Assembly: GCA_024720975.1 (NCBI GenBank)
Contig: JANJXX010000003.1
Location: 85,543-149,542, forward strand
Direction: 5' to 3'
Source: Thermoproteota archaeon
GTDB taxonomy: Archaea; Asgardarchaeota; Njordarchaeia; Njordarchaeales; Panguiarchaeaceae
Length of the DNA stretch: 64,000 nt
The notes beneath the pieces are model-generated. The model was given only the letters and a program-made list of their open reading frames with translations. It was not told the origin of the DNA and searched no databases. This document shows positions 55,089 to 64,000 of the stretch, in pieces (position 1 is the first letter of the stretch; every line of letters starts with the position of its first letter). The position numbers were made by a program, and so were the translations under genes.

Positions 55089-55805
55089 TTATCGCATCAA
55101 TTCATCGGGATTTACATCTCTTATTTTTCTAGCGGGTATACCAACCCAAAGCCCCCTATCGAGCTTTGCATCTTTAGGAATTAATGTGTATGCGCCCAAA
55201 ATTACGTAATCATCTAACACTGCTCCTGGCATAATAAGCGCATTAAAGCCTATCAGGCAATACTTTCCGATCTTAACGCGCCTGAATATTATGCGCCCGG
55301 GTTTATCAGCTATGTGCGCCAATATTTTAGCACCACCCCCGATCACGCTGAAATCTCCAACTTCAGTGAGAAATGGATCTGTCGTCCATCCTTGGAATAA
55401 TACTCCCTTTCCTATTTTCGCACCGAAGAGCTTGAAAACCAGTAGTTTTGCATGTATGAACATCCGCCCGGCAATTAGGGAAATTGTGTATAATCCTTGT
55501 GCCAGAATCCATTTAAAAACCTCTTTGTTTTTTACAGTTAGCTCATATTCACCTTCCTTTGGAGTCAGTCTAGCAATCCTAAATAGAAAACCCGGGATGA
55601 ATAGAAAGCTGCCGAAGGAGACTCCAAACAATAAAAGGAGATACTTGAGAGTACCAAATGCAAATTGCATAACGTCCTCAGAAATGTGCAGCTGGTAATA
55701 TTTTATCAGTATTATCGGAGGAAGCATACACAGAAGAAAAACAGAGAGCAAAATTAGGCCAATTAAGACATTCAATATCGCACTTTTAATGTCCATCGCT
55801 AACAC
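55089..55805 (-). CDS. Membrane-associated hexapeptide-repeat (LbH) acyltransferase-like protein
   Basis: Two N-terminal TM segments, 'GAKIGKGV', 'VKIGKYCLIG..A.IMPG', 'GIPARKI' motifs. Confidence 0.85.
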   Translation of the reverse strand: MLAMDIKSAILNVLIGLILLSVFLLCMLPPIILIKYYQLHISEDVMQFAFGTLKYLLLLFGVSFGSFLFIPGFLFRIARLTPKEGEYELTVKNKEVFKWILAQGLYTISLIAGRMFIHAKLLVFKLFGAKIGKGVLFQGWTTDPFLTEVGDFSVIGGGAKILAHIADKPGRIIFRRVKIGKYCLIGFNALIMPGAVLDDYVILGAYTLIPKDAKLDRGLWVGIPARKIRDVNPDELMR

Positions 55806-55887: not shown

Positions 55888-57018
55888 CTAATATACTATA
55901 TCTAATAACAATGCATTTAGATCTTCTAAACTAGTTTTAGCCTTAATGCGCTTTAGACCCTTATCCAGCGTCCTATAGCATGTAGGACATGTTGTTGTGA
56001 TTATTTCTGCCTGCGTATCAACAAGCTCTTGAGCTCTCTCTAAGCTGGCTTTCAAATGGAGTTGCGGATTATAAGCACTCACCATACCACCGCCACCACA
56101 ACACCTTGCAAAGAATTTATTGTATTTGGGCTCTATCAGATCTCCTAGGGCCTCTATAAGTTTTCTTGGTTGCTCAACTAGCTTAAGTTTTCGGGATAGG
56201 TCACAGGGATCGTGATATGTAAATGTTCTATTTAGTCTATTAAGTTTTATTCTACCGCAATCGAACTCCTCAAAAACACTCATAACCACATGCGTGGCCT
56301 CTAATTCAAATCCATCAATGAATTTAGGATATATCTCCGAGATTGTATACACACATCCAGGGCAGGGGGACACTATTTTCTTTATCCCTCTCTCTTTCCA
56401 AGCCTTGTAGTTGGCTTTCGCTATGGCATCAAAGGTTTCCCAATCACCAGTTAAGAATACTGGATACCCGCAACAACCTTCGATTTCTGGTACATATACA
56501 GCTTCGACTCCAATTTTTTCTAACAGGAGGTATATTGCATGGATTCTTTTAGGATATAAGTATGGATATATGCATCCCGTGAAGAATAACACTTGACCAC
56601 GCCGCCTGATATTGGCGTTCTTGGCCCACACTGCTCTATCCTCTCTCGGGAGTCCATAGGGATTGCCAAATTTTGCCACAGAGTCTACCACTGTTTTAAT
56701 TGGTTCTGGAATTTTTCTAGCTACGAAGAGTTCCCGCCGTAATGCCGTGAAGATGTTCGTCGGAAATAGAGCACATTTTGCATCACAAAAACCGCAGAGG
56801 AAACAATTAAATGAACTATCAACGAGACTTTCACTGAAATCTATCTTCCTTTCTACAAGAGCTCTAATTGTTATCATCCGTCCCCTAGAGGAGTAGTGCT
56901 CAAAGCCAAGTACTTTGTACGGAAGACATCCCTCCTGACAATAACCACAGCGTGTTCTATTACAAGTGTATACCTCGTCTCTCCACTCGCCCAATTTCCT
57001 GAGTTCCACTTCTAACAC
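55888..57018 (-). CDS. CCG-domain Fe-S oxidoreductase (GlcF/HdrD-like)
   Basis: Two ferredoxin-type Cys motifs, FFTGC, CCG, CPGC, YHDPC, CCGGGG, CPTC. Confidence 0.9.
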   Translation of the reverse strand: MLEVELRKLGEWRDEVYTCNRTRCGYCQEGCLPYKVLGFEHYSSRGRMITIRALVERKIDFSESLVDSSFNCFLCGFCDAKCALFPTNIFTALRRELFVARKIPEPIKTVVDSVAKFGNPYGLPREDRAVWAKNANIRRRGQVLFFTGCIYPYLYPKRIHAIYLLLEKIGVEAVYVPEIEGCCGYPVFLTGDWETFDAIAKANYKAWKERGIKKIVSPCPGCVYTISEIYPKFIDGFELEATHVVMSVFEEFDCGRIKLNRLNRTFTYHDPCDLSRKLKLVEQPRKLIEALGDLIEPKYNKFFARCCGGGGMVSAYNPQLHLKASLERAQELVDTQAEIITTTCPTCYRTLDKGLKRIKAKTSLEDLNALLLDIVY

Positions 57019-58490
57019 CTTAACCCCCTATATTTTTCTTCGATATCTCTGGGCAACACAAACTTCTTGCCCGGGTTCATTATCCAATTTGGGTCAAAAA
57101 TCTCCTTTATCTTTCTCATATATTCGAGCGCTCTCCCATGCTCATATTCCATTACATCTAGGAGCCGCCATGTGTCTCCGATATATGTTGATGCTGTTCC
57201 TTCTAAATCTATTGCAATCTTACTCATTTCCTTAACGTACTCATAGAATCTCTTTACTTCATCTTCTGAGTCACCAACATAAACAGCACAACTTACGCTT
57301 GGGGAAATACACCCAATCCTCTCGTTATATATGTTCATTCCTAGTATTTTTAATCCGTGTTTCTCGACAGCTCTGACAAACTCTCTATGAAGGTCCTCCA
57401 GTCTTCCCGGAGGAACACCGACATCCGCGGCTCCAAACTTCCTGCTCCTTTGTGAATCTGGCCACTTTTGCTTGAATGGATCAAAATCTAAAGTATGCTT
57501 ACTTTTCCACCAGGATTCTATAATCTCCCTTTCCTCAATAATCTGGCCTCCAAACTTTTCTATAATTTTTCTAGCGTGGTCTTTAGCAAAATCTACAAGT
57601 TCCTTGTCCCCTGACATAGAGAAGAATAGAATAGCTTGTGTTTCTTCAGGTACTTTAGGCTCTCGGCCATATTTTACTCTATATGCATGCGTGTAAAATT
57701 GAAGCCTGAATCTATCATTTATGTTTATAGCATCAATGGGCAATCCCGAAGATAGAAGCTTTTGAGCAGCATTAACAGCATCTTTTATTGATTTGAATAA
57801 AGCACCATCCACCCATCTGTATTCTGGAATTGGTAGGACACGTAATGTAACCTCTGTAATTACACCGAGTGTTCCCTCGGAGCCCACAAACAGTGCATGA
57901 AGTTTTAGACCTGAAGATGAGCAGTAGGCTTTCCTGTTTCCAACTCGAATGATTTCGCCGCTCCCAGTCACGACTACAGCCGAAAGTACGTGATCAAGCA
58001 TTTTTCCCCATCTTACACCAAATGTTGAATCATTATCACAAGCGATTGCTGCGCCAAGCGTAGACGTTGGTTTTGACTCAGGGTCGTGAGGGAGCCATAG
58101 ACCGTATTTGGAAAGTTCATCGTTTAGTGCCTTAATTGTAATGCCAGCCTGCGCGGTCACTGTGAGATTTTCCCTGTCAATCTCAAGTATTTTGTTGAGC
58201 CCTTTCGTATCAATAACCACTCCACCGTAGAAAGTTAGTGTACCCCCACCCATGCCAGTCATACCTCCAACTGGCACTACCGGTATGTGGTATTTGTTGC
58301 ATATTTTAACGACTGCTGCAACCTCCTCTGTAGTCTCAGGTCTTACTACTAGATTTGGAAGAATAAGCTCCTCTGCGGGTCTTGGGGACCAGTCTCTTGA
58401 ATACGCCACAAGTGTAACTATGTCATCTCTAACCTTATCTGCACCAATTGCATTGGAGATTTCAGCTTTAATTGCCTCTAGGTTAATCAA
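57012..58490 (-). CDS. FAD-binding oxidoreductase (VAO/GlcD family), divergent cap domain
   Basis: 'VVRP.TTEEV', 'DP.S', 'GSEGTLGVITE', 'FDP..IMNPGK' motifs. Confidence 0.9.
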   Translation of the reverse strand: MINLEAIKAEISNAIGADKVRDDIVTLVAYSRDWSPRPAEELILPNLVVRPETTEEVAAVVKICNKYHIPVVPVGGMTGMGGGTLTFYGGVVIDTKGLNKILEIDRENLTVTAQAGITIKALNDELSKYGLWLPHDPESKPTSTLGAAIACDNDSTFGVRWGKMLDHVLSAVVVTGSGEIIRVGNRKAYCSSSGLKLHALFVGSEGTLGVITEVTLRVLPIPEYRWVDGALFKSIKDAVNAAQKLLSSGLPIDAININDRFRLQFYTHAYRVKYGREPKVPEETQAILFFSMSGDKELVDFAKDHARKIIEKFGGQIIEEREIIESWWKSKHTLDFDPFKQKWPDSQRSRKFGAADVGVPPGRLEDLHREFVRAVEKHGLKILGMNIYNERIGCISPSVSCAVYVGDSEDEVKRFYEYVKEMSKIAIDLEGTASTYIGDTWRLLDVMEYEHGRALEYMRKIKEIFDPNWIMNPGKKFVLPRDIEEKYRGLRC

Positions 58491-58650
58491 TTAGAAACAC
58501 CTAGAACACTCTACTCTAATTTTTCTATTACGACAAAACGAGGTATTTTGCTTTACGTATATAAAGAAAGAAACTTTTAAAGATTGTTTCCTCAGCTCAA
58601 CGACCAAAAGTTCGACGCTTCTTGAGTGAGAGAAAATTAAGGAAAGCTTA

Positions 58651-59538
58651 TCACAACGATTCATAACCTAATCTTTTGATAATTTTTTCTACAGGACTCT
58701 CGTTTAGATGAAGCCCTAAATCTCTTGGATGCAAACCGAGAGAAAGTCCTAGAAGTTGAGTTAAATATATTACAGGAATCGATATATCCTCCTTTAGTAC
58801 TCTGCTTATTTTCTTTTGTCTCAATTCATATGACTGTTGACAGAGAGGACATATTGTTACTAATGCATCAAATCCCCTCCTTTTGATAGCAAGAAGCTTC
58901 TTTCCCCTTATTAGGTCCGCATTCTCTACATCCACGTTTGCCAAGAGAGCCATACAGCAGTCAAACTTTTCGGGATAGTATGGACAACTAACTCCAAGTG
59001 ATGATAAGATATCTTCGATTATGCTAGGATCCTCTGGATTCTTATCAACTGAGAATTCCCTGGGTCTCAACACGTGACATCCATAGTGGATAGCTAATTT
59101 TAGACCGTCTAATTTTAGTCTGGAATTTTCGATTATCCTTTTCAAGCCTATATCCTCGCTTATGACCTTTACTATATGCTTAATCTTAGCAAAACCAGTA
59201 AACTTCAGGTTCTCTTTACTTAAGATGTTATTGATTAGAGAAAATTCATCATGCGATTCCATGATTATTTTTTTCGCCTCATTAAGTGAGAGATAGCAGC
59301 CATTGCAAAGCGTTATTATGTCTCTTCCTTCCCTTTCAGCAATAGCCATTATTCTAGCCGCAAGTACCAGCCAAGTATTCATATTAACGCAAGCTAGTGG
59401 TTTCCCACAACATTGTTGCTCCGGAAAATCTATGTAATCTATCCCAAAGAAATCCAAAATTTTCCTCGCTGAGATCTCGTATTGATATTGAGATGTCCAG
59501 ACGGCACATCCTTGGTATAATATATAAGTCAAAGTCAA
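58651..59538 (-). CDS. hdrB: Heterodisulfide reductase subunit B
   Basis: YQGC, CCG, CNGC, HYGCH.LRP, CCM, CP.C, 'IPVIYLTQLLGL' motifs. Confidence 0.92.
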   Translation of the reverse strand: MTLTYILYQGCAVWTSQYQYEISARKILDFFGIDYIDFPEQQCCGKPLACVNMNTWLVLAARIMAIAEREGRDIITLCNGCYLSLNEAKKIIMESHDEFSLINNILSKENLKFTGFAKIKHIVKVISEDIGLKRIIENSRLKLDGLKLAIHYGCHVLRPREFSVDKNPEDPSIIEDILSSLGVSCPYYPEKFDCCMALLANVDVENADLIRGKKLLAIKRRGFDALVTICPLCQQSYELRQKKISRVLKEDISIPVIYLTQLLGLSLGLHPRDLGLHLNESPVEKIIKRLGYESL

Positions 59539-60023
59539 TCACCTAGATTTATCGGAAATAATGTTTCATCATAGAGCCTTCTAATTAGCTCTTTGCTAAC
59601 GACGGGAGTTCTTAGGTTAAGATCTTCCCTTTTAATAAGCTTTCTATCTTTGCTTACAACACCCATTTCAGGCGTTATTCTACCGTAAACATAGATATTT
59701 TTAGCCATTTTGATCCACGCTTCCGGGGGCAGCTTCTTCTTTGAGGCTATATTTCTTAATGCAACGATGACACTTGCAGGATGAACATCCATTGGACACC
59801 TCTCACTACACTTCAAGCACTGCGTGCAGTACCATATTATTCCTGATTGAATGAGCTCATCAATGAAACCTAAGTACGCCAACTTAACGATTTTATTAGG
59901 TCTATACTCACTGTGAACCTCTGCAACTGGACATCCAGAAACACATCTATTACAGACGAAGCATATTTCCGGTTTTATCCAGTACAGTATTCTCTTGAGT
60001 TCCTTCGTCAAAGAGTCATGCAT
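59535..60023 (-). CDS. hdrC: Heterodisulfide reductase subunit C
   Basis: CFVCNRCVSGCP and WYCTQCLKCSERCP motifs. Confidence 0.92.
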   Translation of the reverse strand: MHDSLTKELKRILYWIKPEICFVCNRCVSGCPVAEVHSEYRPNKIVKLAYLGFIDELIQSGIIWYCTQCLKCSERCPMDVHPASVIVALRNIASKKKLPPEAWIKMAKNIYVYGRITPEMGVVSKDRKLIKREDLNLRTPVVSKELIRRLYDETLFPINLGD

Positions 60024-61990
60024 CTATGCCACCTTAATGCGCCTTCAATCTCCAGAAGTATTGGTTCTAGGAAAACGTTTGGTATAGTTATAGCCCCACT
60101 GGGACACGCCGCCGCACAAATGCCACAGCCAATACATAAGGCTTCGTCAACGGTAATTTTGCTAAGTGACCCTTCTTTTTCTATCGATAAGGCGCTAAAT
60201 GGACACACACGGACACATATCAAGCACTTAGAGCACAGTTCGTCGTTAACTTTTGCTTTGAACGGTTCAAGTTCCAGCTCGCCCTTTGCAAGGAAGCTTA
60301 TAACTCTGGCAGCGGCACCTTCAGCATGAGCAACTGAGTCTGGTATATCTTTGGGACCTTGAGCGACGCCAGCTACGAATATTCCCGCTATGGGAGTTGC
60401 TGTTGGATCTAATTTAGGATGCTTTTCGAGGATAAAGCCATCTGAACTCCTGGGAATTCGCAAAATCTCGGAGATCTTTTCATGATCTTTTGATGATTGC
60501 AGTCCCGTGCTTAGGATTACTAAGTCTGCTTCTATGTTAAGTATTTTGTCTGTTGAGGCATCGTATACCTGCACGATTACCTTCCCATCATGATCTTCCT
60601 TAAGTTCAGAGGGAAGTCCTTTTATGAATATTATCCCCCTTTCTCTGGCTCCTTTATAGAATTCTTCAAAACCTTTACCAAATGCTCTGATCTCGGGGGC
60701 ACATATATATATTGTAGCATCCTTGAGTTTTTCTTTTGCGATTATTGCATGTTTTATTGATTCTACGCAACCGATTCGACAACAATATTCATTATAGTTT
60801 ACATTCCTGAAGCCAACACACTGTATAAAAACTAAAGTCCTGGGCTCCTTTCCGTCACTGGGACGTATAATTTCACCATTCGTTGGACCGGCCACATTAG
60901 TGAGTATCTCGAACTGAATGCCTGTGATTACATTCCTGAACTTTCCATAGCCATACTCAACTACTCTAGATGCGTCAAAAGGCTCTCCACCTATCGCTAC
61001 TATTATCGCTCCAAAGGTATCTTCAATTATCTCTTCATTCATATCAAATTTGATCGCATCCCTGTCACATGCTTTATAACATAAACCACAGACATCCCTT
61101 TTAAGTTTAAGCCTTAAGCAGGCATTTGGATCTATTAAATACGCGTTAGGATATGCCTGAGGAAACGGAATGCAAATTGCTTTTCTCTTACCAAGACCAA
61201 ACCACCATTCATTAGGGACTTCCACTGGACATTTCTCAGAGCAGTTTCCACATGCTACACACTTGGCTTCATCGACGTATCTGGGTTTCTTTAAAATTTT
61301 TACATGAAATTTCCCAGGTCCACCACGAACTTCAATTACCTCAGAGTTTGTGAGTATTTTTACATTATTAAGCTTTGTCACTTCTGAGATCCTTGGGGCG
61401 AGTATACATTGTGCGCAATCAAGTGTCGGAAAGGTTTTGTCAAAGAACATCATTTTACCCCCGATCGTAGGTGCTTTATCAACTATGGTTACCTCGTAAC
61501 CTGCCTTTGCCAATTCTATAGACGCATGAATGCCGGCGATGCCCCCGCCTATTACTAGAACTTTTCTTTGAACTTCTCTCTGTATCTCTTCAAGAGGAAC
61601 AAACGAAGAGACTTTTCTGATGGCCATTGCAATGATCCTTTTAGCTTTTTCCGTTGCTTTTTTTGGATCAGTATGAACCCACGAGCATTGCTCTCGAATA
61701 TTTGACATTTCTAGCAGATATTTATTGAGTGATGTCTCTGCAACTGCTCTTCTGAAGGTCTCCAAATGCATTGAAGGCGAACATGCAGCTACAACAACCC
61801 TGTTTATACCAAGCTTCTTTATGTCCTCCTTTATAAGGTTCTGCCCCGTAGACGAACACATATAAACGTAATCTCTTGCAATAATGACTCCGGGCAATTT
61901 TGATGCAAAATCTCTTAATTCACTTACGTTTACTGTGCCAGCAATATTTTTGCCACAGTGACATATATAAACGCCTATCCTTGCTTCCAA
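60008..61990 (-). CDS. hdrA: Heterodisulfide reductase subunit A
   Basis: 'IGVYICHCGKNI', 'AACSP..H', 'NIREQCSWVH', GGGIAG, 'DKTFPTLDC..C', inserted and C-terminal ferredoxins, 'GPKDIPDS'. Confidence 0.96.
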   Translation of the reverse strand: MEARIGVYICHCGKNIAGTVNVSELRDFASKLPGVIIARDYVYMCSSTGQNLIKEDIKKLGINRVVVAACSPSMHLETFRRAVAETSLNKYLLEMSNIREQCSWVHTDPKKATEKAKRIIAMAIRKVSSFVPLEEIQREVQRKVLVIGGGIAGIHASIELAKAGYEVTIVDKAPTIGGKMMFFDKTFPTLDCAQCILAPRISEVTKLNNVKILTNSEVIEVRGGPGKFHVKILKKPRYVDEAKCVACGNCSEKCPVEVPNEWWFGLGKRKAICIPFPQAYPNAYLIDPNACLRLKLKRDVCGLCYKACDRDAIKFDMNEEIIEDTFGAIIVAIGGEPFDASRVVEYGYGKFRNVITGIQFEILTNVAGPTNGEIIRPSDGKEPRTLVFIQCVGFRNVNYNEYCCRIGCVESIKHAIIAKEKLKDATIYICAPEIRAFGKGFEEFYKGARERGIIFIKGLPSELKEDHDGKVIVQVYDASTDKILNIEADLVILSTGLQSSKDHEKISEILRIPRSSDGFILEKHPKLDPTATPIAGIFVAGVAQGPKDIPDSVAHAEGAAARVISFLAKGELELEPFKAKVNDELCSKCLICVRVCPFSALSIEKEGSLSKITVDEALCIGCGICAAACPSGAITIPNVFLEPILLEIEGALRWHRCMTL

Positions 61991-62017
61991 GAATAATCCC
62001 TCTACGTAGAAGAGGAT

Positions 62018-62455
62018 CTAACGACCAAGACGCTCCTTTATTTCCCTCTCTATCCAGTCCTTGATTTTGTCCGTTTGAGTTCCAGCTATCAGGTCTCCTA
62101 TATCTCTTTCTACATCATATGCCTCCATTACTAACAGCCACCCTTCATCATATGGACTTCTATTTATTAGGGATGGATCATCATACAGTCTTTCATTAAC
62201 ATATAGGACTTTACCACTGACAGGTGAGCGCAATCTTCCTACCCATTTTCCACTTTCGATTGTTACTATTACGTCGCCTTTGGAAAATTCTTCTCCGATG
62301 CGCGGAAGATCCACAAAGTCTATTCTTCCGGATTCCTTTGCCGCAAAATCGTCTATTCCAATACGTACTTTATTCTTTTCTATAGCTTTAACCCACAGGT
62401 GATCTTCTTTATGATAATATAAGTCCTCCGGAAACTCGTAGTTATGCACTTTCAT
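62018..62455 (-). CDS. Lipoate-binding protein (LbpA / GcvH-like)
   Basis: 'IESGKWVG' lipoyl-Lys motif, 'SPVSG...VN', 'INRSPYDEGW'. Confidence 0.92.
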   Translation of the reverse strand: MKVHNYEFPEDLYYHKEDHLWVKAIEKNKVRIGIDDFAAKESGRIDFVDLPRIGEEFSKGDVIVTIESGKWVGRLRSPVSGKVLYVNERLYDDPSLINRSPYDEGWLLVMEAYDVERDIGDLIAGTQTDKIKDWIEREIKERLGR

Positions 62456-63588
62456 AGAGTACCACCACGCATTATTGCTGAATCTGTCTTTTTAATTTGG
62501 GCGATTATACCTAGAATTTGAGAAACGAGCGTTTCATCATCACTGGTTACATTAAAGCCCAGATTTTGAAGCAAGTTGCTAGCATTGAAATTCTCCAACT
62601 CATTAATACTCTTATTTATCAGGGCCATTTCGAGTGAGTCTATGAGTTCTGGGCGACTAAGGAAGAAGTCTCCAGATATTGAAATATCTAAGATTTTCCC
62701 GTCTCTGACCTCAGCTATGATTCTTATCAACTTCTCTGCTTTTTCTGTGAGCTGGATTATATAGTGGTTTTCCATGATCTTTACTTGCTGTTTATTACCA
62801 AGCCTCTCCAACATTTCTCTATGCTTCTCTCGGCATCTAAATGTCCACTTGTTGTCTCAATACTTCCTCATGAGCATAGACATGTAATCTTTCTCATAGC
62901 TAGTGAGTTCTCCTTCAACAAACTCAATTCCAAAAGTTTCTTTGAAACATTCGATATATACCTTTTCAATTTCCTCCATCGATGGTTTTCTCCCTAGTTC
63001 TCTCTTTAGGGACGTAACCCACTCTCCTATACTCCTGACCACCTTGTCCCGCATTTTCTCATCAGGTATCTTAAGCACGGATGCAGTAACCTCTGGTTTG
63101 AAATCTGCAATAATATTACCGACGATAACTACGGCATTCCCGAAGGATACCGCCCCATTTCCCGAAGCCTTCCTATTGTTTACTATTACATCGTTAATTG
63201 GTCTATATTCAGCAGGAAGACCAAACCTCCTGTAAGTACAAACTGTTGGTCTGAGAAATCTCTTAAATAGCTCTCTTATACCTATAGGTGCATGTTTTCT
63301 GTTAACAATTATATGATAGAAAAACTGATCACTATCAAGATACACGGTACCGCCTCCGACCTGTCTCCGTACTAGTTCTATCCCCAGCTCTCTGCACTTA
63401 TTCAGGTCCACATCGAGCTCAGCAATTTGATGCACGCCTATGCATACGTATGGTCTGCTAGGCCAGCATATATGCAAAGTATTAGGAGCCTTACCACTAG
63501 CGACACTCTTAGCAATAGCCTCATATGATGCATGCACAGCAAGGGGTTCTAAGGCTCCACTCTTAACCAGTCTCCACTTTTCAACCAT
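62452..63588 (-). CDS. lplA: Lipoate-protein ligase, catalytic plus C-terminal domain in one frame, interrupted by an in-frame TGA at 62859-62857 (read-through, pseudogene or error)
   Basis: 'PYVCIG.HQ', 'RRQVGGGTVYLD', 'NDV...RKASGNG' motifs, then KY*DNKWTF continuing in frame to 'ISGDFF'. Confidence 0.85.
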
Positions 63589-63739
63589 ATTCATCACCAG
63601 AAGAATCCCATCCATAACAATATGTTTGGACTACTTGAGGATCAAACTGTACTAATTATCTTGTTTTGGATACTTTAGATTTAGAAAACTTACAAGGGGT
63701 ATAAAAATAGATTTGAGCAAGATCTGGATTCAGCTAGAT

Positions 63740-64000
63740 CTATTCCCTAGGAATGCTTTCCGGTGTCGCTTCAGGGGTAGCCACTAGTCCAAGTACATAT
63801 ACCTCTCTAAGTGGTGGTATTGCTTTCCTTAGAAATAGGTATAGCAATGTTATGCCGCCTGCAAATAGTGCTCTTTCAATTATAACGAGAGGTATAGCCA
63901 TATTCCAGTAAATTGCGGGTATGTTGAAAGCATATAAGAACATTACAGAACCAACACAATGATCTATGAAGGTTGCTCCTAACGAGTACAAATAGATCTT
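63740..64000 (-). CDS. C-terminal part of a membrane protein, possibly an ECF S-component (5' end off window)
   Basis: Frame open to the window edge; TM helices with 'TFIDH..GS' and 'W...IP....ER'. Confidence 0.55.
   Translation of the reverse strand, partial: KIYLYSLGATFIDHCVGSVMFLYAFNIPAIYWNMAIPLVIIERALFAGGITLLYLFLRKAIPPLREVYVLGLVATPEATPESIPRE

Follow-up and report, generated by a model that had tools for sequence, protein, structure and literature searches.

Heterodisulfide reductase complexes of the HdrABC type occur widely among non-methanogenic archaea as well as anaerobic bacteria, where the question of their substrate is a long-standing one, and genome papers routinely assign non-methanogenic HdrABC an 'unidentified heterodisulfide'. 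Two described systems bring Hdr proteins together with a lipoyl carrier. The sHdr-LbpA-sLpl(AB) system is an established Hdr-like complex working with such a carrier (Cao et al. 2018, PMC6067878; Tanabe et al. 2023, PMC10332631). Among the Culexarchaeia, a GcvH gene stands beside HdrA2B2C2 and HdrB genes within the Ehe cluster, and the lipoyl moiety was suggested as the unidentified disulfide (Kohtz et al. 2022, PMC9723716). Here we describe a gene cluster of a Thermoproteota archaeon that encodes a membrane protein, a lipoate:protein ligase, a GcvH-like lipoyl carrier, HdrA, HdrC, HdrB, a flavoprotein and an HdrD-like iron-sulfur protein. It lies at the end of the window, by which we mean the whole stretch of DNA that was analysed, namely the last 64 kb of contig C23 in an assembly of 1.36 Mb, 29 contigs and 81% completeness. 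We propose, with a probability of roughly 0.55, that the dithiol/disulfide of the lipoyl carrier is the substrate of the two CCG-domain enzymes of this cluster, HdrB and the HdrD-like protein.

The core of this proposal, a lipoyl carrier as the Hdr disulfide, is already published as a speculation for the Culexarchaeia (Kohtz et al. 2022, PMC9723716). The two cases are alike in that each concerns a non-methanogenic hot-spring member of the TACK archaea (Thaumarchaeota, Aigarchaeota, Crenarchaeota and Korarchaeota) whose GcvH-type gene neighbours HdrB and an HdrABC-type complex predicted to bifurcate. By contrast, the Culexarchaeia cluster has at its core a group 4 [NiFe] hydrogenase of the membrane-bound type, together with SdhA and CdhA, and its description mentions no ligase, flavoprotein/HdrD-like pair or transporter (the word 'lipoate' has 0 occurrences in PMC9723716). 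A glycine cleavage system is moreover attributed to the Culexarchaeia, and none was seen in the present lineage. Membership of this archaeon in the Culexarchaeia was considered and rejected, since their metagenome-assembled genomes have both the glycine cleavage system and the Ehe cluster, neither of which was seen here. Our literature search found no paper on the present seven- to eight-gene arrangement, on the clade of carriers to which its GcvH-like protein belongs (the 'GKW' clade) or on the equal tie of such carriers to GlcD/HdrD-like pairs.

Every gene of the cluster lies on the minus strand, from 63740-64000 down to 55888, according to the open reading frame (ORF) listing and family scans. 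The membrane protein gene, whose product resembles the S component of energy-coupling factor (ECF) transporters, is represented by its last 86 codons (63740..64000) and is truncated by the contig end. It is followed by lpl(AB), encoding a one-chain lipoate:protein ligase (62452..63615; PF21948 and PF10437/NF053749), which shares an ATGA overlap with the gene of the 145-residue GcvH-like lipoyl carrier (62018..62455; PF01597). After 27 nt comes hdrA (60008..61990), which encodes a 660-residue protein without fused MvhD, identified by alignment to HdrA of PDB 5ODC; it overlaps by 16 nt with hdrC (59535..60023; 162 residues; TIGR03290, Fer4_8/Fer4_17), itself overlapping by 4 nt with hdrB (58651..59538; 295 residues with two CCG domains, PF02754 twice). 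A 160-nt intergenic gap (58491..58650) separates hdrB from the gene of a 492-residue flavin adenine dinucleotide (FAD) flavoprotein of the vanillyl-alcohol oxidase (VAO)/GlcD family (57012..58490; PF01565, FAD_binding_4, and PF02913, FAD-oxidase_C). In this gap, the A/T-rich box TTTATATA, read from the sequence about 65 nt ahead of the flavoprotein start, may constitute a second promoter. The last gene, overlapping the flavoprotein gene by 7 nt, encodes the 376-residue HdrD-like iron-sulfur protein (55888..57018; PF13183, Fer4_8, and PF02754 twice). The co-directional, tightly packed organization that an earlier, sequence-only reading of this DNA had described is thus borne out, and each of the spacings it gave (the ATGA overlap, the 27 nt, the hdrA/C/B overlaps and the 160 nt) was reproduced. 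A gene for a hexapeptide-repeat acyltransferase (55089-55805) is found on the same strand 82 nt past the cluster, and likewise in the near-identical relative L035.

The content of the genome bears on what such a carrier might serve. The carrier (PF01597, 110 bits) is the sole GCV_H match of the genome, no other lipoyl or biotinyl domain occurs in the assembly, and the ligase is likewise its sole LplA/LipB-type catalytic domain. The absence of gcvP, gcvT, E2, tusA and dsrE from the window, as first noticed, holds for the entire 1.36-Mb assembly, in which neither the glycine cleavage genes gcvP and gcvT nor an E2 core was found and in which tusA (PF01206) and dsrE (PF02635) had no match. The equally noted lack of mvhD in the window was confirmed, a single genomic copy being located about 120 kb away. 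The genome also yielded no lipoyl-dependent peroxidase of the OsmC/Ohr kind. Neither lipA nor, by tblastn, LipS1/S2 homologues were found in it, and with no lipoate synthesis genes detected, lipoate must be salvaged. Finally, the 81%-complete genome yielded neither mcrA nor comA (other routes to coenzyme M (CoM) and the synthesis of coenzyme B (CoB) were not searched), which makes the CoM-S-S-CoB heterodisulfide an unlikely substrate. For a ligase and a sole carrier that, in a genome showing no lipoyl-dependent enzyme, form a tight unit with two enzymes whose CCG sites reduce disulfides, the simplest account is that the dithiolane of the carrier would be the substrate of these sites.

This linkage is conserved, as the sequence-only reading had required of its own proposal, with the same order in relatives and other gene orders in other families. 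The order lpl-gcvH-hdrA-hdrC-hdrB-flavoprotein-HdrD-like is kept in relatives with 72% carrier identity and in one genome of the same genus. Across at least six families of the phylum, members of the carrier clade have hdrCBA(-mvhD) or GlcD/HdrD-like genes as neighbours: hdrC-hdrB-hdrA-mvhD is accompanied by a convergent gcvH in G030 and G040, which belong to other families, gcvH-hdrC-hdrB-hdrA-mvhD runs in a single direction in G015, hdrB-gcvH is seen in G032, and HdrD-like-GlcD-like-gcvH in G037, G016 and G018. Links of the carrier to the flavoprotein/CCG pair alone, without hdr genes, also occur. The two CCG-rich genomes G024 and G034 contained 0 extra GcvH paralogues adjoining a CCG gene.

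A scan of metagenomes with the alignment of the carrier clade yielded 80 loci, in which the neighbourhood was taken as 2.5 kb. Genes of the hdr type were near the carrier in 17 of the 80 and GlcD/HdrD-like genes also in 17 of the 80, with either or both in 30; an lpl gene was near the carrier in 25 loci, mostly together with a LipS gene. None of the three (hdr, GlcD/HdrD-like, lpl) was present in 27 loci, 22 of which have less than 900 bp of flank on one side. In eight metagenome loci (L053, L056, L081, L085, L087, L093, L110 and L111), hdrC-hdrB adjoin the carrier gene and lead into HdrA-like regions that are very long or repeated, with one or two mvhD as well; these are multi-HdrA operons. 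Within the order, the carrier and an orthologue of the window-type HdrB (46-72% identity) co-occur in the same two families, and the other two families have neither the carrier nor this HdrB, only an Mvh-type HdrB of about 30% identity; because these genomes are kin, the co-occurrence is to be read as a pattern and not as a statistical test.

The second CCG enzyme of the cluster comes with an atypical partner. A VAO-type FAD protein (here FAD_binding_4 at 133 bits and FAD-oxidase_C at 73 bits) and a two-[4Fe-4S]/two-CCG protein encoded by two genes recall the units formed by GlcD or D-lactate dehydrogenase (D-LDH) with HdrD- or GlcF-like proteins; the GlcDEF glycolate oxidase and the D-LDH of sulfate reducers with its HdrD-like subunit are comparable. 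The translation of the HdrD-like gene contains an N-terminal two-[4Fe-4S] domain and two CCG domains with all ten cysteines, and its best NCBIfam matches, TfrB and LdhH, are all under cut-off. Unlike these known units, the present one is linked to a lipoyl carrier and lacks the His/His/Glu metal/substrate site of D-2-hydroxyacid dehydrogenases: in alignments with glycolate oxidase 9QGZ and D-LDH 8JDC, YNERIGCIS stands at the position of HxGDGNxH and TYIG at that of EHG. The loss is common to close relatives (L002, L006 and L035), and the second GlcD homologue of the genome (contig C11) retains the site. Since the missing site is the one that binds metal and 2-hydroxyacid, the substrate of the flavoprotein probably differs from 2-hydroxyacids, as judged from these alignments. 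The flavoprotein is hence no ordinary GlcD or D-LDH. The idea, put forward in the sequence-only reading, of an electron exchange with the downstream enzyme agrees with the independent tie of the carrier to the flavoprotein/CCG pair. Other carrier-linked GlcD-like proteins are mixed in this respect: the His/His/Glu site is kept in the fused 858-residue GlcD-CCG forms of L075 and L089 and is missing in L046, L141 and L052.

Loading of the carrier can be assigned to the ligase, provided that its gene is intact. Its LplA catalytic domain (62857-63615; PF21948, 134 bits), in which the RKASGNG motif with the catalytic lysine is present, and its LplB-like accessory domain (62452-62814; PF10437/NF053749) appear in the assembly as two ORFs of 252 and 120 residues in one frame, split by a TGA at 62857-62859. 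The relative L035, which is 98% identical, has GGA in place of this TGA and thus a single 378-residue two-domain ligase, and position 62859 of the plus strand is C, giving GGA (Gly), in contigs of 4 of 4 public hot-spring runs from four studies. On these grounds, the lpl(AB) gene is most likely whole in nature and the TGA an assembly error or a rare variant; the true start is probably the ATG at 63588. A two-subunit LplA/LplB ligase of the Thermoplasma kind was rejected as the two ORFs share one frame and GGA is found in relatives and in the four runs, and recoding of the in-frame TGA was judged unlikely on the same GGA readings.

The complete form of the upstream membrane protein was supplied by contig C29 (L034:8905-9645). 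It is a multi-pass protein of 243-246 residues with about five to six hydrophobic segments by hydropathy and without a Pfam or NCBIfam match. Its ESM Atlas feature score of 0.95, with 218 of 256 features common to clusters auto-named 'ECF transporter S component', offers a lead, not proof, that it may be an ECF S component. An importer beside the ligase would fit with lipoate salvage. In tblastn searches, however, the membrane protein was absent from every other fetched locus, so that its adjacency to the ligase, and with it the idea of lipoate import, draws on this species only. Of the lipoate importer first suggested, the likeness to an S component hence stands at the level of language-model features, and a conserved adjacency does not. 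The window end (63385-64000) recurs at the end of contig C29, another contig of this assembly, over 616 nt with 97% identity, so that the contig break is attributed to strain variation. DNA of this archaeon is present in hot-spring metagenomes from several studies (public sequencing runs), and many linked variants are seen across public runs in this overlap zone. About 6 kb upstream of lpl, contig C29 also carries a gene for a 451-residue flavoprotein resembling CoA-disulfide reductase/NADH oxidase (Nox) (L034:2443-3798; also L035:1511-2866), which matches TIGR03385 at 226 bits, under cut-off, and is possibly a disulfide reductase linked to NAD(P)H in the vicinity of the lipoyl genes.

If these elements work together, Lpl(AB) would load salvaged lipoate onto K70 of the carrier, and the resulting dithiolane/dithiol would be a substrate of the noncubane-cluster (CCG) site of HdrB within HdrACB and also of the HdrD-like protein that is paired with the atypical flavoprotein. 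The carrier would thereby take the role of CoM-S-S-CoB, as a two-electron thiol/disulfide shuttle from HdrA, bifurcating or confurcating with ferredoxin, to a second oxidoreductase. In one direction, which is our guess, HdrACB would reduce the lipoyl disulfide and the HdrD-like/flavoprotein pair would re-oxidise the carrier on some acceptor. In the other, the pair would load the carrier and HdrACB would confurcate the carrier electrons with those of ferredoxin, disposing of electrons. The gene content, the intact cofactor motifs, the lack of any other lipoyl-dependent enzyme in the assembly, the separate clade of the carrier and its recurrent gene linkage are results of the analysis, whereas the lipoyl group as substrate, the direction of electron flow and the donor of HdrA are points that we infer. 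The full scheme, a closed and operon-encoded protein thiol/disulfide loop that would replace CoM-S-S-CoB, with HdrACB reducing the carrier and ferredoxin, the VAO-type/HdrD-like pair re-oxidising the carrier (or the reverse) and the S component importing lipoate, is put forward tentatively and is, taken as a whole, less likely than not.

Several points weigh against the lipoyl carrier as the substrate of the CCG enzymes. All the support for it consists of gene linkage and phyletic pattern, for which related genomes are not independent samples, and at 81% completeness of the assembly the gene absences remain unproven. In two other species of the same genus, G001 and G004, gcvH and hdrACB are on different contigs (in G001, gcvH is located 4 kb from the flavoprotein/HdrD-like pair). 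The cluster is devoid of MvhD or another evident donor for HdrA. Both LbpA cysteines are missing from the carrier. At about -290 mV, compared with about -140 mV for CoM-S-S-CoB, lipoamide is moreover a poor high-potential acceptor for bifurcation; H2-driven bifurcation to ferredoxin would be near equilibrium with it, and the loop may consequently run either way. It should be noted that co-folding of the HdrB alignment with the carrier alignment scored 0.00 against a mark of 0.32, which is no answer and is neutral on binding.

The alternative that best survives the evidence is one of mere co-location, in which HdrACB and the HdrD-like protein would use a small-molecule (hetero)disulfide or another thiol and the carrier would serve something else, for instance as an antioxidant or general thiol buffer, or as a scaffold on which lipoyl groups are assembled. 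We consider it unlikely, yet far from negligible. It draws on the unlinked gcvH of G001 and G004, and on the CoA-disulfide-reductase/Nox-like flavoprotein 6 kb upstream, which implies that other thiol systems exist; furthermore, a large sub-branch of the carrier clade (QSRKW) is found only beside lpl and LipS genes, as expected of an assembly scaffold. However, a scaffold would have to pass its lipoyl group on to a further acceptor, of which the genome shows none, and neither a lipoyl-dependent peroxidase of the OsmC/Ohr type nor a CoM synthesis marker or mcrA was found in it. Nor can chance explain an adjacency to CCG genes that recurs in several orders and families and in the 30 of the 80 metagenome loci. 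These points lead us to retain the carrier as the preferred candidate for the substrate of HdrB and of the HdrD-like protein.

A second alternative depends on the kind of Hdr complex that is encoded. Residues 2-653 of HdrA align with residues 3-651 of the 654-residue HdrA of PDB 5ODC (5ODC_A, E 5e-202), the DCxxC segment included, and this alignment covers the N-terminal cluster domain, the thioredoxin-reductase-like FAD domain and the inserted and C-terminal ferredoxin domains. By contrast, sHdrA (6TJR) matches only residues 329-565, the central third, which agrees with the sequence-only reading of HdrA as full-length and of the methanogen type, a bifurcating type, rather than sHdrA. In the translation of hdrC, two CxxCxxCxxxCP [4Fe-4S] motifs are found. 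HdrB possesses all ten cluster-binding cysteines, its second motif being CCM in place of CCG, and these ten cysteines are invariant across an alignment of 21 carrier-linked or related HdrB; its best PDB matches are the methanogen proteins HdrB2 (9SFI_C, E 6e-52) and HdrB (5ODC_B, E 2e-49). The complex thus resembles the methanogen MvhADG-HdrABC (Wagner et al. 2017; PDB 5ODC) by the end-to-end alignment of HdrA and by the cluster cysteines kept in HdrB and HdrC, and differs from it in that this cluster includes no mvhD or hydrogenase gene and in that the NCBIfam Hdr equivalog cut-offs are all missed (HdrA2, NF040770, 803 versus 1100; HdrB, TIGR03288, 210 versus 345; HdrC, TIGR03290, 82.8 bits versus 160). 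Given this alignment, the kept cysteines and the missed cut-offs, HdrACB belongs to the classical HdrABC architecture, of which it is a divergent representative, and is no sHdr.

A second Hdr set of the same genome, about 120 kb off on the same contig and interleaved with genes for Mvh hydrogenase and 2-oxoacid:ferredoxin oxidoreductase (POR), is 49% identical to the window set in HdrA and only 29% in HdrB. It lies on one strand outside the window (C23:17000-26200 of this genome, G000; L033:5175-14166) in the order ferredoxin, POR alpha, POR beta, mvhD, mvhG, mvhA, POR gamma, hdrC, hdrB, hdrA, which places POR inside an Mvh-Hdr operon, an unusual interleaved order.

Since the trio of an Hdr-like complex, a lipoyl carrier and a dedicated ligase is the hallmark of sHdr-LbpA (PMC6067878), the locus might represent a divergent form of that sulfur oxidation system, in which sulfane sulfur bound to the carrier would be oxidised to sulfite by the Hdr-like complex. 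The likeness extends to the CCG-subunit Hdr complex, the GcvH-like carrier outside glycine cleavage and the ligase encoded alongside, to the archaeal origin of the ligase lineage and to the isoelectric point (pI) of the carrier. A pI above about 4.5 separates LbpA from the more acidic GcvH, according to a 2026 preprint; with a pI of 5.06, compared with a median of 4.26 for 21 canonical GcvH, the carrier would fall on the LbpA side. However, HdrA is full-length in contrast to the sHdrA of about 350 residues, and the genes run A-C-B with only one hdrC-hdrB pair, in place of the hdrC1-B1-A-hyp-C2-B2 arrangement. The TusA and DsrE sulfur transferases, which according to PMC11094781 are always present alongside sHdr, were not found in the genome, nor were LipS1/S2. 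The carrier is also devoid of cysteine over its 145 residues, conserved cysteines being characteristic of most LbpA (PMC6067878), and the genomic context is anaerobic, with Mvh/POR genes, not one of sulfur oxidation. The present cluster hence appears to resemble sHdr-LbpA-sLpl(AB) in outline and to fall outside it in its particulars, and sulfur oxidation of this type is very improbable here. As for the suggestion that the carrier is an LbpA, its pI and its separation from GcvH agree with it and the missing cysteines do not. Among the distant homologues, the 225-residue P0035 combines a GcvH-like with a TusA domain in one chain (PF01597 + PF01206) and is, by these domain matches, a direct lipoyl-carrier/sulfur-carrier fusion.

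The carrier itself shares with GcvH the fold family, the size and the position of the lipoyl-lysine, which is K70 in ESGKWVGR, and its closest solved structures are all GcvH (profile matches, E 1e-33). Its nearest homologues form a small group of 60-76% identity. Its TIGR00527 score of 104.9 is under the equivalog cut-off of 115.85, and its score for the GcvH subfamily NF002270, 118.6, is just over the cut-off of 117. A maximum-likelihood tree of 126 proteins was built without experimentally defined LbpA1/LbpA2 rows and with seven distant bacterial GcvH, obtained from a single-protein scan, as canonical outgroups. In this tree, the 21 canonical rows are split from the 105 others with a support of 99 in the Shimodaira-Hasegawa-like approximate likelihood-ratio test (SH-aLRT), and the window carrier is nested among Hdr- and GlcD/CCG-linked rows, in the GKW clade, apart from each of the phylum's nine gcvT-adjacent GcvH (SH-aLRT 99). 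The lipoyl-lysine sites follow the same division: they are E[ST]GK[WY][VI]G in all Hdr- or GlcD/CCG-linked carriers and ES[VME]KA-like in canonical proteins, both the nine that are gcvT-adjacent and nine that are bacterial or of other origin. In same-phylum genomes with several GcvH-like genes, the gcvT-adjacent copy is always the weaker match to the carrier and the best match is located elsewhere, so that the gcvT-adjacent GcvH is a different paralogue in genomes holding both types.

The carrier thus differs from GcvH by E-S-G-K-W in place of E-S-V-K-A, by its separate clade, by its less acidic pI and by the lack of a detected P or T protein. The distinction from true GcvH drawn in the sequence-only reading agrees with the SH-aLRT 99 split and with gcvP and gcvT not being found in the genome, and these comparisons support the view that the carrier does not function as the H protein of glycine cleavage. 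That it is nevertheless an ordinary H protein which, with a salvage ligase, lies by chance beside Hdr genes, gcvPT being in the unassembled 19%, is scarcely credible, for the NF002270 score and the GcvH structures that favour it are outweighed by the missed TIGR00527 cut-off, by the tree and motif, and by gcvT being found in 0 of 14 genomes of the order, this one and 13 others of 66-91% completeness. The carrier clade also includes a tight QSRKWIGK sub-branch of acidic pI (median 4.2), whose members in every case directly precede lpl and a radical-SAM gene of the LipS type and never adjoin hdr (metagenome loci L051, L054, L055, L057, L060-L062, L066, L067 and others); this sub-branch may be of a lipoyl-assembly scaffold type.

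Taken together, these results make the locus a compact and nearly minimal seven-gene test case, in which a ligase, one carrier, a probable importer, HdrACB and a second CCG enzyme are encoded side by side. If the lipoyl carrier proves to be the substrate, a substrate would be assigned to a large class of electron-bifurcating enzymes, and the role of protein-bound lipoate would extend past 2-oxoacid and glycine metabolism and past sHdr sulfur oxidation. Should the closed loop also be true, the GKW carriers that stand beside hdr genes across Thermoproteota and in many metagenomes would represent the 'missing heterodisulfide' for non-methanogenic HdrABC in general.

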